Of a stretch of DNA of 64,000 nt, positions 42,405-44,645 are shown in pieces. Source of the DNA: an uncultured Candidatus Saccharibacteria bacterium (GTDB lineage Bacteria > Patescibacteriota > Dojkabacteria > J137); contig CAZSKK010000002.1 of NCBI GenBank assembly GCA_964607415.1, forward strand, positions 73,991 to 137,990. Direction: 5' to 3'. Position 1 is the first letter of the stretch. Each line of letters begins with the position of its first letter. The notes beneath the pieces were generated by a model. It searched no databases and was not told the origin of the DNA. It saw only the letters and a list, made by a program, of their open reading frames with translations. The translations under genes were made by a program, and so were the position numbers.

Positions 42405-42478
42405 TAGTGAGAGCTAGGGATCGAACTCGCGACCTCAGGTTTACCTGCCTGACAAATTACAAACTCTAGTTTCAAATT
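42405..42478 (-). pseudogene. Degenerate partial copy (anticodon-stem 3' strand through T-arm) of the adjacent tRNA-Met
   Basis: ...cctgaggtcgcgagttcgatccctagctctc... versus the intact ...cctgaggtcgagggttcgatcccctcccttggt. The T-stem is no longer complementary. Confidence 0.5.
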
Positions 42479-42552
42479 TACCAAGGGAGGGGATCGAACC
42501 CTCGACCTCAGGTTTATGAATCCTGTGCTCTAGCCAACTGAGCTACCTTGGT
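42479..42552 (-). tRNA. tRNA with CAT anticodon (elongator Met, or Ile2 if lysidinylated)
   Basis: Minus strand ACCAAGGTAGCTCAGTTGGCTAGAGCA-CAGGA-TTCATAA-ACCTG-AGGTC-GAGGGTTCGATCCCCTC-CCTTGGTA. A1:U72 pair, so not an initiator. Confidence 0.7.
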
Positions 42553-42565
42553 TAAGTGGCTTTGT

Positions 42566-42600
42566 ACTTTGTGGGCAGATGAATCCTGTGCTCCTTGCCA
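42566..42600 (-). pseudogene. Partial copy of the tRNA-Met D/anticodon region
   Basis: ...gcagatgaatcctgtgctccttgcc... matches ...gaatcctgtgctctagcc... of the intact gene. Confidence 0.4.
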
Positions 42601-42863
42601 ATATGCCAAGCATTTTGGCAGTTCGGAACTCTTTCCCTAAAATACCAGATGATTGATATAAAGTGCTTTTGTATTTTAACACGAGACAACACCATGTGTT
42701 GCCGAGAATAAAACTTTTATTTATTTAGAAACGGTCCCACTAACATGCGGGACCGTAGAGACATTATACGGGTTACTGGAAAAATTGTCTACGAGTTATG
42801 CTGGGGAAAGAGTTGAAGTTCAAGTACCAAGCTATTGTTATTTACTTAAACTATTGCTTTATT

Positions 42864-42935
42864 TTGCGGGGGTCCGATTCGAACGGACGACCTTCAGGTT
42901 ATGAGCCTGACGAGCTACCACTGCTCTACCCCGCG
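42864..42935 (-). tRNA. Initiator-type tRNA-fMet (CAT) with a C1:A72 mismatch
   Basis: Minus strand CGCGGGGTAGAGCAGTGGTAGCTCG-TCAGG-CTCATAA-CCTGA-AGGTC-GTCCGTTCGAATCGGAC-CCCCGCA A. Unpaired 1:72 and a CUCAUAA loop are typical of bacterial initiators. Confidence 0.7.
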
Positions 42936-42966
42936 ATATTTTGTGCAAACAATGATAACACTTATT

Positions 42967-43419
42967 TTAAAAATTAATCAAGTTTAACCACCAGTCCAAA
43001 AAATTATCTTTAGACTTTAAATCCAGATATTCCTTATTCTCTGAAATATAGTAAGTAATTGGTTCTTTTGTTCTAAAAAGTGTTTCGTTGGCTCCAGCAT
43101 ATCCAAAGCCATTTCTTAAAGCTAATTCCCTAAATTCATCTGAAGAATAGTATGAATAATCATCCAATAAATCCCTATTTTTTTCTTCCAGCTCAGATAA
43201 GCTTTCCTTTTCATAAAGATAGGTATCGTAGTTAAATTTACCTCTATTAAGAGTACTAATTATATTAAAAATTAATATAACCGACAGAAAGGATAGCAAA
43301 AAAGTTAAACTAACTCCCTCGAAAATAATGTGGCTGGTATAGTGTTTCAATCTTAAAATTAAAACATTTTTTTTAGAAAAGAATCTGTTTTTTAACATAA
43401 AAAATTTTATTTGACCCAA
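42967..43419 (-). CDS. Hypothetical small membrane protein
   Basis: 150 aa with one TM segment, no recognisable domain, and a basic N-terminus. Confidence 0.35.
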   Translation of the reverse strand: MGQIKFFMLKNRFFSKKNVLILRLKHYTSHIIFEGVSLTFLLSFLSVILIFNIISTLNRGKFNYDTYLYEKESLSELEEKNRDLLDDYSYYSSDEFRELALRNGFGYAGANETLFRTKEPITYYISENKEYLDLKSKDNFLDWWLNLINF

Positions 43420-43486
43420 AAACTAAAGCTATGATAACATTCGCAAGGTAAGCGTCCTATAATATTATACATTAGATCCTTTATAA

Positions 43487-44356
43487 ATGCAGACTTCTCA
43501 AGAACTGATAGAAAATTTCGTACAATACTTGCGAAGAAAAAATAAGTCTCATTCAACTATTATTGCATACAAAAAAGATCTTGAGCAACTCGCAAGTTTA
43601 AATGTCAGAAAAAATCTAACTGAGTACACTGTTGATGATATAAAAAATGGGCTAAATTACCTAAGAACAGACAAGGGACTAACTTTAAAGACTGTTTCAA
43701 GAAAATTAAATAGTATTAGAACTTTTTATAAATATTTAGAAGCTAAGAACTTAATAAAAGATAATCCCAGCAAGAATGTTACTCACCCAAAGTTTCCACT
43801 AAAAAAACAAAGAGTTCTGTCAGAGATGGAGTGTCTTGCGCTTAAGGAAGTAAGCAGAGATAATGCAAGACTTTACGCAATGATTGAACTACTACTACAA
43901 ACCGGAATTAGAATAAGTGAATTATCGAATCTAAATTTGAAAGATGTGCAAAACAAAATTGGTGAACATTACCTTCACGTTGAAAAATATTCAAACAACC
44001 CTGAAAGAAGAGTTCCTTTAAACGATAAAATAAATAAAATCTTAGCTTCTTACATTGATTCTTTACCTAGAAAAACTCAAACTAGCCCACTATTCCCTAC
44101 ACGTAGTGGCAAAAATATGGAAATTAGAAACATTAGGAGCTCAATTGATAGGGCAATAATTAAAGCTAAGGTTAAAAATGCATGTGTAAACGATATTAGA
44201 AATACTTTTATCGTAAGGCAATTGGAAAATGGGATGTCTATTTCAAAATTAGCTGAAATTGTTGGCCACAGAAATATTCTTACAACGCAAAAATATATCC
44301 GTCTTCTTTCAAAAAAATACAAACCTACTGGAATAGATAAAGTGTGCGAGTTATAA
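43487..44356 (+). CDS. Tyrosine site-specific recombinase (XerC/XerD or phage-integrase family)
   Basis: 289 aa. N-terminal SAM-like core-binding domain. The catalytic domain has ...LLQTGIRISELSNLNLKDV... (box I R), ...DIRNTF..., and ...GHRNILTTQKYIRL (catalytic Y). It sits directly beside tRNA genes and tRNA fragments. Confidence 0.8.
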   Translation: MQTSQELIENFVQYLRRKNKSHSTIIAYKKDLEQLASLNVRKNLTEYTVDDIKNGLNYLRTDKGLTLKTVSRKLNSIRTFYKYLEAKNLIKDNPSKNVTHPKFPLKKQRVLSEMECLALKEVSRDNARLYAMIELLLQTGIRISELSNLNLKDVQNKIGEHYLHVEKYSNNPERRVPLNDKINKILASYIDSLPRKTQTSPLFPTRSGKNMEIRNIRSSIDRAIIKAKVKNACVNDIRNTFIVRQLENGMSISKLAEIVGHRNILTTQKYIRLLSKKYKPTGIDKVCEL

Positions 44357-44383
44357 TACTGAAGTTAATAATTCAGTACAGAT

Positions 44384-44402
44384 TTCTAGCTCAGCTGGTT
44401 AC
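44384..44402 (+). pseudogene. 5' tRNA fragment (acceptor plus D-arm-like: TTCTAGCTCAGCTGGTTA)
   Basis: Resembles the 5' end of the tRNA at 44473 but lacks the remainder of the cloverleaf. Confidence 0.4.
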
Positions 44403-44472
44403 TTGCCTTGCCGAAATGCATGGCATGCAGGCAGGTAGCACGGGTTCTTTAAAGAAGTTAGGTATTAAAAAT

Positions 44473-44546
44473 AGACCTGTAGCTCAGTTGGTTAGAGCAC
44501 GGTTCTTATAAAGCCGGGGTCCGTGGTTCGAGTCCACGCAGGTCTA
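44473..44546 (+). tRNA. tRNA-Ile (anticodon TAT; AUA-decoding)
   Basis: AGACCTG-TA-GCTC-AGTTGGTTA-GAGC-A-CGGTT-CTTATAA-AGCCG-GGGTC-CGTGG-TTCGAGT-CCACG-CAGGTCT-A. All stems pair and the anticodon is UAU. Confidence 0.6.
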
Positions 44547-44594
44547 TTTTTAATATCTTTACTTTAGAATTAAAGCTCGGGAACTCATTCGACA

Positions 44595-44645
44595 TGATAA
44601 TATCATGTCTCACGTGGTTCGAGTCCAAGTGGCCTACTTTGAATA
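44595..44645 (+). pseudogene. Palindromic hairpin (gacatgataatatcatgtc) followed by a 3'-half copy of the neighbouring tRNA T-arm/acceptor (att-like remnant)
   Basis: ...cacgtggttcgagtccaagtggcct... versus ...ccgtggttcgagtccacgcaggtct in the intact tRNA 50 nt upstream. Confidence 0.45.

Follow-up and report, generated by a model that had tools for sequence, protein, structure and literature searches.

Nested partial copies of tRNA-Met and tRNA-Ile(UAU) genes beside a Xer-like recombinase gene of a Dojkabacteria genome, best read as footprints of tRNA-replacement cassettes

The DNA considered here is a stretch of 64,000 nucleotides (nt), hereafter the window, from an uncultured Candidatus Saccharibacteria bacterium that GTDB places in the Dojkabacteria (assembly GCA_964607415.1, contig CAZSKK010000002.1, positions 73,991 to 137,990 of the forward strand). 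It is low-GC DNA with one rRNA operon and ten tRNA genes. Around positions 42,405 to 44,645, genes for an elongator tRNA-Met, an initiator tRNA-Met (tRNA-fMet) and a tRNA-Ile with the anticodon UAU lie on the two sides of a gene for a Xer-like tyrosine recombinase, and two of these tRNA genes are accompanied by pieces of tRNA sequence. At each of the two loci the pieces are what is left of a single older gene, split into halves in its anticodon loop, and the intact gene sits between these halves, an arrangement that the first-pass annotation of this DNA had overlooked. They are best read as footprints of small selfish cassettes that replace the tRNA gene they interrupt, while the classical scars left by integrases at attachment (att) sites fit them poorly.

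Two tRNA genes nested between the halves of older copies

Near the recombinase gene, ARAGORN and Rfam give three tRNA genes, at 42479-42552 (minus strand), 42863-42936 (minus strand) and 44472-44547 (plus strand); four had been reported before, and there is no fourth. The first and the last of the three are enclosed in what will be called nests, which share the order [5' half]-[arm]-[intact tRNA]-[complementary arm]-[3' half]. The Met nest proper occupies 42405-42620, and the Ile nest, with its leader, 44361-44636. In coordinate order, the two nests and their flanks are made up as follows.

42316-42401, minus strand: trailer of the outer tRNA-Met, an 86-nt hairpin element with a central 19-nt palindrome (42355-42373) and an inverted repeat of 23 nt, 87% complementary
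42405-42443, minus strand: 3' half of the outer tRNA-Met (nt 36-76), decayed; 25/27 local match
42444-42478, minus strand: right arm of the Met cassette, ending ...TTTGTCAGGCAGG; it abuts T36 of the outer copy and pairs with the left arm in the fold
42479-42552, minus strand: intact elongator tRNA-Met(CAT), the inner functional copy (ARAGORN; Rfam tRNA, 67.6 bits)
42553-42579, minus strand: left arm of the Met cassette (TCTGCCCACAAAGTACAAAGCCACTTA); it abuts A35 of the outer copy and pairs with the right arm
42580-42603, minus strand: 5' piece of the outer tRNA-Met, D-loop to A35; 22/23 match to positions 16-37
42604-42620, minus strand: small hairpin TGCCAAAATGCTTGGCA in place of the lost acceptor strand and 5' part of the D-stem of the outer tRNA-Met
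44361-44381, plus strand: leader of the outer tRNA-Ile, homologous to the left arm of the inner cassette (direct repeat)
44382-44401, plus strand: 5' half of the outer tRNA-Ile, part 1 (acceptor remnant and D arm)
44402-44435, plus strand: 34-nt hairpin in the D-loop of the outer tRNA-Ile, with the ends CTTGCCT...AGGCAGG, then TA
44436-44453, plus strand: 5' half of the outer tRNA-Ile, part 2 (3' strand of the D-stem to the anticodon loop), ending TTCTTTAAA, with A35 missing
44454-44471, plus strand: left arm of the Ile cassette
44472-44547, plus strand: intact tRNA-Ile(TAT), the inner functional copy (ARAGORN; Rfam, 66.9 bits)
44548-44569, plus strand: right arm of the Ile cassette, resembling the outer trailer 44637-44660 (similarity judged by eye)
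44570-44581, plus strand: 3' half of the outer tRNA-Ile, part 1 (TTAAAGCTCGGG; 3' side of the anticodon loop and stem)
44582-44610, minus strand: 29-nt insertion at the variable-loop position of the outer tRNA-Ile, carrying the 19-nt palindrome 44591-44609
44611-44636, plus strand: 3' half of the outer tRNA-Ile, part 2 (T arm and 3' acceptor strand)

In the Met nest the older gene is broken exactly between nucleotides 35 and 36 of the anticodon loop (35/36 below), and the arms inserted there have the ends CCTGCC...GGCAGG. Read on the coding strand (42579-42553), the left arm starts TCTGCCCACAAAG; the end of the right arm can also be written GTCAGGCAGG, a terminal motif common to hairpins in the related loci L031, L058, L075 and L246 (L-numbers denote the comparison loci). 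The whole cassette folds into a long stem capped by the cloverleaf (z = -3.9). On its 3' side the outer copy continues into the hairpin 42316-42401, which folds with -16.9 kcal/mol (z = -5.4), and the arm/trailer motif AGCAATAGTNTAAG of the outer tRNA-Met also follows tRNA-Thr(TGT) and the initiator tRNA-Met. The pattern of the small hairpin TGCCAAAATGCTTGGCA is matched exactly at one more place in the window, within the hairpin at 44409-44425.

In the Ile nest about 6 nt of the anticodon loop are present in both halves, and the junction TTCTTTAA of the 5' half recurs in L011, L012 and L218. Leader and first part of the outer gene are repeated in the inner unit (44361-44401 against 44454-44494, 41 nt, 73% identity). 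An inverted repeat of 20 nt, 95% complementary (44460-44479 with 44539-44558), extends the acceptor stem of the intact gene through the discriminator base, and the cassette again folds as a long stem under the cloverleaf (z = -6.7). The hairpin 44402-44435, folded alone, is no better than shuffles (z = -0.7); its end motif and its D-loop position recur in L233. The outer 3' half keeps the GGCCTA of the relatives; at this place the inner gene reads GGTCTA, and its 5' side has changed to compensate. Since the outer tRNA-Met 3' half has a native-type trailer and the outer tRNA-Ile has GGCCTA, the outer copies look like the original genes in their native context.

That the pieces are genuine tRNA remnants was assessed against shuffled tRNA queries run over the whole window, whose maximum local score was 30. 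The match of 42405-42443 to the 3' half of the intact tRNA-Met scores 44 and that of 42580-42603 to its positions 16-37 (D-loop to anticodon) scores 33, so each Met piece exceeds the shuffles singly. The tRNA-Ile pieces 44382-44401 and 44611-44636, with scores of 25-30 each, are within chance for 64 kb; they are, in addition, colinear with the gene, on the same strand and within 100 nt of it, with a T-arm match of 15/15. Once its two inserted hairpins are removed, the outer tRNA-Ile is identical to the intact gene at 56/68 positions, and the spliced outer tRNA-Met at 50/61; in neither case was any shuffle as good (0/2000), and both outer copies have 82% identity to their respective inner genes. 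The partial copies of both tRNAs reported by the first-pass annotation are therefore real, the Ile pieces once spliced. Their extents at the Met locus needed revision: 42405-42443 and 42580-42603 stand as tRNA sequence, and 42444-42478 and 42553-42579, which had been counted with them, are the complementary arms around the intact gene. No further copy of either tRNA half was found elsewhere in the window, and fragment searches of the window gave no partial copies of the initiator tRNA-Met. With Rfam on 42150-44700 at E <= 10, the tRNA covariance model matched none of the fragments, and no RNA family was found for fragments or hairpins beyond weak miRNA-type noise.

Taken together, it is probable that the fragments are the outer shells of tRNA-Met and tRNA-Ile(UAU) genes, each split in the anticodon loop by an arm-tRNA-arm cassette free of open reading frames (ORFs).

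Nests and insert ends in related genomes

Nests of this kind recur in relatives. Partial copies beside tRNA-Ile(UAU), tRNA-Met or tRNA-fMet were found at 7/36 species-representative loci and, on metagenome contigs, at the further loci L218, L235, L246, L247 and L248; L014, L218, L235, L023 and L075 have one or both tRNA halves. A scan of metagenomes with the tRNA-Ile 3'-half pattern returned mostly tRNA-Thr(CGT) genes of other phyla, with 7/26 loci being tRNA-Ile(UAU). The fragments are not stable across relatives: they are present in some and absent from others, and the arms around the inner gene differ by species. In fact, a blastn-short comparison of all arms against all fetched loci shows that arms differ completely between species, so that the nests go back to separate events, with the exception of the pair L012/L218.

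The clearest nest is that of L011, which reads leader, tRNA-Ile nt 1-40, 45-nt arm, intact tRNA-Ile, 44-nt arm, nt 32-74 and trailer. Its arms are imperfectly complementary, and its halves are identical to the inner gene (39/39 and 42/42) except for the missing A35. The sister locus L225 has a single tRNA-Ile. The two loci are nearly identical over ~270 nt upstream and ~88% identical over 1.5 kb downstream, and share a 10-bp leader/trailer helix (GTATGCACAG/CTGTGCATAC); at the tRNA gene L011 is 172 nt longer, the excess being arm-tRNA-arm plus an 8-nt repeat, TCTTTAAA. In other words, the nest appears as one block between sister lineages, the empty site of L225 reading GGTTCTTATAAAGCC and the filled site of L011 reading GGTTCTT-TAAA[arm-tRNA-arm]TCTT-TAAAGCC. 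Five independent Logan contigs that encode the recombinase of L011 stop exactly 30 nt inside the 3' end of the tRNA; a k-mer assembler stops where a segment has two continuations, so this end is expected if the segment is duplicated. A MAG contig with the same recombinase as L011 and L236, L237 (JASNYL010000012.1), reads leader, tRNA, 44-nt arm and 3' half. It was considered as a half-nested intermediate and set aside as a probable assembly chimera or natural recombinant, and is not used as evidence.

Other nests are deeper and graded in age. L012 has three layers, with matches of 18/19, 19/19 and 38/38 in layer 2 and of 17/22 and 30/34 in layer 3, and its layer 2 bears a 72-nt insertion within a few nt of the position of the D-loop hairpin in the window. 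In L246 an elongator tRNA-Met is nested three deep between CCTGCC-type arms, in the same architecture as the Met nest of the window, and the layers again show an age gradient (30/30 against 27/29).

The ends of the inserts provide a second line of evidence. Hairpins of the form CCTGCCTG(AC)...CAGGCAGG end exactly at 35/36 of anticodon-arm copies, with CAGGCAGG followed by T36. Such sites are found in the Met nest of the window, at tRNA-fMet and tRNA-Met in L031 and L246, and at tRNA-fMet in L058, L075 and L247, and L031 carries an identical 34-nt hairpin at both of its tRNAs. In L075 a tRNA-Ile is nested between arms of this kind, the right one ending CGGGCAGG at the same 35/36 junction. The CCTGCC...GGCAGG terminal inverted repeats recur in five species and one cassette type is fixed at 35/36; similar ends also occur at D-, variable- and T-loop positions of pseudo-copies, including 44402-44435 of the window and L233. 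Over their full 35 nt, the arms of the Met cassette of the window and the Ile cassette of L075 align better than 4999/5000 shuffles. From these comparisons the Met cassette appears to belong to a Dojkabacteria-wide family with CCTGCC...GGCAGG ends at 35/36. A reading of the CCTGCC palindrome as a dif site was rejected, as the spacing of its arms varies from 0-8 nt to >100 nt.

Six of these loci (L031, L058, L075, L246, L247 and L248) also contain a small ORF of 83-90 amino acids (aa) between the intact tRNA-fMet and a copy of the 3' part of that gene which hairpins interrupt. The ORFs of L075, L058 and L031 match the GIY-YIG nuclease family (Pfam PF01541) with E values of 1e-12 to 2e-14, and for those of L246 and L247/L248 the PF01541 match is precomputed; a search for homologues of this nuclease returned at least 4 proteins. 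With the hairpins removed, the interrupted tRNA-fMet copy is identical to the intact gene (50/50 in L246, 45/45 in L247). In L058 and L075 a second, truncated GIY-YIG copy lies beside duplicated tRNA parts.

A simpler origin would be purely local: tandem duplication of leader, tRNA and trailer by slippage or unequal crossing-over, followed by deletion of halves, with no mobile element involved. The arms of the Ile cassette in the window do resemble the leader and trailer of their own locus, inner and outer copies always belong to the same tRNA species type, and at the tRNA-Arg locus of the window (21222-21400) decayed copies stand in tandem on the 3' side only. However, such an origin calls for two deletions with precise ends, in the anticodon loop as well as at the boundaries of the unit, and for this to have happened again and again in several species and three tRNA types. 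Moreover, the halves of L011 are identical to the inner gene, yet its 45-nt arms hold no trace of the deleted halves or of a native leader or trailer; a tandem triplication was rejected for this locus on the same ground, the 45-nt arms being unlike the missing halves. Nor does local duplication provide for CCTGCC...GGCAGG ends common to distant species. We regard it as unlikely, and infer insertion rather than stepwise duplication.

As an observation on the tRNA genes themselves, a helix of 9-17 bp between leader and trailer, continuing past the acceptor stem (register +/-2), is present in 11/30 tRNA-Ile(UAU) genes, 4/35 initiator tRNA genes and 0/31 elongator tRNA-Met genes. It is seen at 44460-44558 of the window and in L010, L020, L024, L218, L225, L233, L018, L043, L047 and L068; its sequence varies by species, and it also occurs at un-nested genes.

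Helices of this type raise the question of whether the nest might work as RNA: its transcript could be a precursor awaiting processing or splicing, for instance as a long stem for RNase III to cleave, or as a split tRNA whose parts are joined once the inner tRNA has been removed. The 9-17 bp helices, with sequences that vary by species even at un-nested genes, would suit such a role, as would outer pieces that equal the inner gene in L011, L246 and L247. In the window, however, the outer copies differ from the inner genes by 18%, have no acceptor pairing and are interrupted by hairpins; the halves of L011, when joined, give a 6-nt anticodon loop without A35; the covariance model misses the fragments, and Rfam offers no intron or other RNA family that suits them; and the arrangement is absent from most relatives. 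This makes a functional architecture highly improbable. The intron-containing, split and permuted tRNAs of archaea come from functional genes, whose transcripts a splicing endonuclease restores (PMC4090602, PMC4390854). They resemble the nests in having an interruption in or next to the anticodon loop, with an interrupting segment that forms a helix. Here, unlike there, the interrupted copy is a decaying pseudogene, the break lies at 35/36 and not at 37/38, there is no bulge-helix-bulge, and what interrupts it is a tRNA gene in its own right. Readings as bulge-helix-bulge or group I introns were accordingly rejected on position, size and outer-copy decay, with no Rfam intron at E <= 10.

Recombinase, neighbouring genes and palindromes

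The remaining features of the locus are the following.

42680-42722, plus strand: reverse-oriented partial copy of the gene-3'-end hairpin family described below, with palindrome 42686-42700; inverted repeat with 42336-42378 (43 nt, 74% complementary)
42863-42936, minus strand: initiator tRNA-Met (ARAGORN and Rfam; 1-72 pair flagged as a mismatch)
42967-43419, minus strand: gene for a DivIC-like small membrane protein (conserved synteny)
43487-44356, plus strand: Xer-like tyrosine recombinase of 289 aa (Pfam Phage_integrase, 6.6e-26, and SAM-like N-terminal domains)
44651-47092, minus strand: gene for a VirD4/TraG-like ATPase (Pfam DUF87, TrwB_AAD_bind and TraG-D_C)

The recombinase has the domains PF02899/PF13495 and PF00589 and aligns end to end with its best solved relatives, XerA 5hxy (2.8e-24) and XerD 1a0p. 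It falls short of the curated equivalog cutoffs for XerC (143/335 bits), XerD (136/330), XerA (133/220) and XerS (58/267). R142, R238, H261 and Y270 are conserved and the catalytic Lys is unplaced in the alignment; the HxxRH box has Asn for both His (N235 and N239), a feature that is invariant in the 23 aligned family members from Dojkabacteria and Microgenomates. An identical protein is encoded on 20 public contigs, and the nearest relatives (53-61% identity, 284-303 aa) are proteins of Candidatus Dojkabacteria (WS6; Patescibacteria, or CPR, the Candidate Phyla Radiation) whose source labels are XerC/XerD. No paralogue was found in the 64-kb window.

A pattern scan of species-representative genomes for the recombinase gave 240 related loci. 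Its orthologues in relatives have 41-59% identity, and the order FtsH(-)/tRNA-Met(-)/tRNA-fMet(-)/DivIC-like(-)/Xer(+)/tRNA-Ile(TAT)/VirD4-like(-) is the same in at least 20 Dojkabacteria loci. The VirD4-like gene is equally conserved (57-73% identity, in the same position, in the Dojkabacteria loci L010-L031), and in Roizmanbacteria the recombinase still adjoins it, with no tRNA adjacent. As for the DivIC-like protein, its orthologue in L246 has a weak DivIC Pfam match, and the protein of the window itself has no Pfam or NCBIfam match. Since its orthologues keep this gene order across Dojkabacteria, the recombinase is a core gene and not part of a recently integrated element; the sequence comparisons support its vertical inheritance, and with respect to the cassettes it would be a bystander. 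Base composition points the same way: between 34 and 64 kb GC content is 31-36% and GC skew is negative throughout, with no break and no skew switch within the 30 kb examined, so that neither an island boundary nor a terminus lies here.

These results bear on the explanation first offered for the locus, according to which the fragments are att scars from repeated integration and excision of elements at tRNA 3' ends, the recombinase is the integrase of those elements and the locus is the edge of an island, marking the boundary of a secretion-like gene cluster. Partial tRNA copies beside a tyrosine recombinase are indeed the classical signature of tRNA-integrating elements, which are several kb long, carry an integrase of their own and leave a single 3' fragment at their far end (PMC9897764). 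Furthermore, the copies vary between relatives, and L237 reads intact tRNA, 44 nt, 3' half. Nevertheless, gene order is conserved across the class for the recombinase and for the gene sets on both sides of it, and L237 looks chimeric. There are 5' halves as well as 3' halves, and they lie 18-35 nt from the intact gene, not kilobases away. When the fragments are aligned to the intact tRNAs, as had been proposed to define an att core, the breaks fall in the anticodon loop and not at the 3' end; the matching direct repeat expected at a far end is absent as well, no distal half copy lying within 64 kb, and composition is flat. Classical att scars are thus largely refuted and very improbable. What had been observed was largely right, and so was the view that mobile DNA had left scars at these tRNA genes; wrong were the mechanism (att scars at 3' ends), the role given to the recombinase and the island boundary.

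A different part for the recombinase is conceivable, in which mini-elements without an integrase were inserted by the adjacent Xer-like enzyme into the palindromic DNA of anticodon arms. In every Dojkabacteria locus the recombinase gene lies between the affected tRNAs. The junctions of L011 carry an 8-nt direct repeat, and the joined ends deduced for it, GCAAATTTC-TCTTTAAA-TTTGC, come close to a palindrome; another palindrome, TTATAA, occurs in the anticodon loop of tRNA-Ile(UAU), and the orientation of tRNA-Ile differs between clades while its neighbours are fixed. On the other hand, tRNA-Arg, 21 kb away, has similar broken copies, CCTGCC-type insertions have neither overlap nor repeat at the junction, and arm sequences are wholly different between species, leaving no common binding site. 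A single reciprocal exchange would not yield two L011 junctions that both lack A35. Finally, the elements co-occur with a GIY-YIG nuclease in relatives, and Roizmanbacteria conserve the recombinase family just as well, with no tRNA beside it. Insertion by the Xer-like enzyme is, on balance, unlikely. The CTX phage and its relatives are integrase-less elements that exploit the host Xer system at dif. The cassettes resemble them in being small, lacking a recombinase of their own, having a palindromic or hairpin-forming junction and lying beside a Xer-type recombinase; they are unlike them in that there is no dif-like site or GC-skew switch and the arms are unconserved between species, and an involvement of Xer would be hypothetical.

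The tRNA-Ile(TAT) gene deserves a separate comment. Its strand in L010-L024, L031 and L084 is opposite to that in the window and in more distant Dojkabacteria, and the recombinase and VirD4-like genes keep their orientation where it is flipped. As the strand of the tRNA differs and the flanks are fixed, the tRNA unit has been inverted in place at least once. A tRNA-Ile with the anticodon UAU is uncommon in bacteria. In the window, AUA would be decoded by this tRNA, and both genes with a CAT anticodon look like Met/fMet genes; from these sequences, this suggests that the lysidine (TilS) route may not be used in this genome.

The 19-nt palindromes, three of which (42355-42373, 42686-42700 and 44591-44609) had been noted before, are real and belong to one family with about 9-10 copies in the window:

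5910-5928
21222-21240
21339-21357
42355-42373
42686-42700
44591-44609
51866-51884
51906-51924
61494-61512

Perfect members are 19 nt long, with a 9-bp stem and a 1-nt loop. The flanks ATTCTC-[19-nt palindrome]-TCG are conserved, and the stems vary with compensatory changes. Several palindromes are the centre of imperfect hairpins of 86-105 nt, as at 42316-42401 (z = -5.4) and 5862-5966. They lie downstream of minus-strand genes and tRNAs. Specifically, 8/10 are oriented with minus-strand transcription, and for 9/10 the closest minus-strand gene or tRNA ends 25-175 nt upstream. Nearly all copies are within 25-60 nt of such an end, among them those after tRNA-Thr(TGT), tRNA-Arg, the outer tRNA-Met, the VirD4-like stop and the genes ending at 51951 and 61537. 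The copy at 44591-44609, within the outer tRNA-Ile, is 42 nt after the VirD4-like stop codon (44651), with the flanks ATTC-[pal]-TCA. They are, in short, a gene-3'-end hairpin family and not att cores. The stems have 21-42% GC, and the transcribed strand continues GAGAATA(A)AAA, with no U run; judged by its sequence and position, the family may act in termination or processing and may be an unusual signal of this lineage.

Members of the family also occur at tRNA-Arg(CCT) (21413-21484, minus strand), which is followed by two decayed partial copies of itself in the region 21222-21484. Each copy is broken after nt 35 (..GGCATTCC before the break, CGA after it) by a 19-nt palindrome, and its 5' acceptor strand and part of the D-stem have given way to a longer hairpin (21375-21399, 21263-21285). 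This is the third tRNA of the window with pseudo-copies, here in tandem on the 3' side and not nested. Other features of the window are G+C-rich palindromes CCTCTCC...GGAGAGG at 35301-35385 and 62143-62248, with a similar one upstream of the tRNA-fMet of L031; a second VirD4/TraG-like ATPase gene at 62460-63836 (minus strand), with 37% identity over 479 aa to that at 44651-47092; and an Rfam match to Whalefall-1 RNA at 61873-61927 (39.6 bits; gathering score 37).

A cassette mechanism and its meaning

How would replacement of a tRNA gene by a cassette proceed? An arm-tRNA-arm cassette would insert into the anticodon-loop DNA of the resident gene. The inner copy would take over the function, and the outer halves would be free to decay and to gather further small hairpin insertions. 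In a genome with single-copy tRNAs, only insertions carrying the same tRNA would be viable, which would account for the constant agreement of cargo and target. As the cassette restores the site that it interrupts, the event can repeat, which would explain nests of two and three layers. The insertion itself might start from a double-strand break at 35/36, for which we infer the GIY-YIG nuclease as the obvious candidate cutter. If an allele with the cassette served as template for repair, the cassette would be copied in, as in homing; repair from a misaligned sister copy, with the inner ends pairing with the outer halves, would add a layer with no need of a transposase. Once in place, cassettes would not be losable without killing the tRNA.

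Several results weigh against replacement by cassettes. All comparison sequences for the nests are metagenome assemblies, and the direction of the difference between L011 and L225, gain or loss, is read only from the un-nested outgroups L010 and L013. The contig L237 is L225-like in the 117 nt upstream of its tRNA-Ile and L236-like at 175/175 variable sites downstream. The Ile cassette of the window has no CCTGCC ends, and its arms copy their own leader and trailer, which also fits local duplication. In L011, A35 is absent at both junctions, an outcome predicted neither by a simple target-site duplication nor by a single reciprocal crossover. Past the terminal 9 nt, the similarity of arms between species is suggestive only (86/5000 shuffles). 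No GIY-YIG gene or remnant was found in the 64-kb window by tblastn, so any nuclease would act in trans or would have been lost long ago. Last, the search for donor copies of the arms was negative both in other loci (blastn-short) and in viral contigs: a scan of the latter with the arms of L011 and of the window and the tRNA-Ile of the clade gave 0 matches, and the at least 120 matches to the 14-mer CCTGCCTGACAAAT were unrelated, at chance level and uninformative.

Known mobile elements share part of these features. Williams, in 2002, reportedly gave the anticodon loop as one known sublocation of integration. Like the islands, prophages and integrative and conjugative elements (ICEs) that integrate in tRNA genes by means of a tyrosine integrase (Reiter 1989 and Williams 2002, as cited in PMC9897764), the cassette interrupts the gene, brings a replacement sequence and leaves a displaced partial copy. 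Unlike them, the insert is of ~115-170 nt and consists of a whole tRNA with two complementary arms and no integrase, the 5' and 3' halves stay 18-45 nt from the intact gene, and the nesting is recursive.

Correia elements, Rickettsia palindromic elements and REP/PATE are small non-coding inverted-repeat elements found at preferred short targets. The cassettes are likewise small, non-coding and hairpin-folding, with terminal inverted repeats, conserved ends and a variable interior, as in miniature inverted-repeat transposable elements (MITEs). They depart from these in targeting the loops of tRNA genes, in carrying, in some copies, a complete tRNA gene, and in their number: 2-3 copies in 64 kb, all inside tRNA-derived sequence, with no transposase found. 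At clean 35/36 junctions of the CCTGCC type there is no target-site duplication; tRNA-Ile cassettes show a loop overlap of 5-8 nt.

The nuclease, too, has a counterpart. SegB, a free-standing GIY-YIG homing endonuclease encoded in the tRNA region of T4-like phages, makes double-strand breaks in tRNA-containing DNA and so drives recombination, by which a tRNA is duplicated along with a truncated copy of the nuclease gene (PMC13096335). In the relatives, similarly, a GIY-YIG gene stands among tRNA genes, and L058 and L075 have a truncated second copy beside duplicated tRNA parts. The differences are that these are bacterial chromosomes, that the nuclease has 83-90 aa, that hairpins sit at 35/36, that the window has no nuclease gene and that the system is known from sequence alone.

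In the full-text literature, whose coverage here was incomplete, no description was found of nested tRNA cassettes or of GIY-YIG/hairpin elements at CPR tRNA genes, and the nested pattern is apparently undescribed in Dojkabacteria. A wider proposal, put forward tentatively and short of being called probable, is that Dojkabacteria harbour a so far undescribed class of selfish tRNA-replacement cassettes, with or without a GIY-YIG gene, which would enter essential single-copy tRNA genes at 35/36, survive by bringing a copy of the same tRNA, and nest like Russian dolls.

Whatever their origin, the nests come with a correction to the annotation of this locus, where a conserved Xer-like gene and a conserved VirD4-like cluster had been read as integrase and island. 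If the cassette reading is true, it would represent a minimal route for selfish DNA into an essential single-copy gene, that is, by bringing the replacement along, and it would tie a conserved hairpin and a GIY-YIG nuclease of very small size to one target, the DNA of tRNA genes. It would also explain pseudo-tRNA fragments in the reduced genomes of the CPR, which annotation pipelines may miscall, and the nests would constitute a natural record of successive invasions, in which the outer layers are the older ones.

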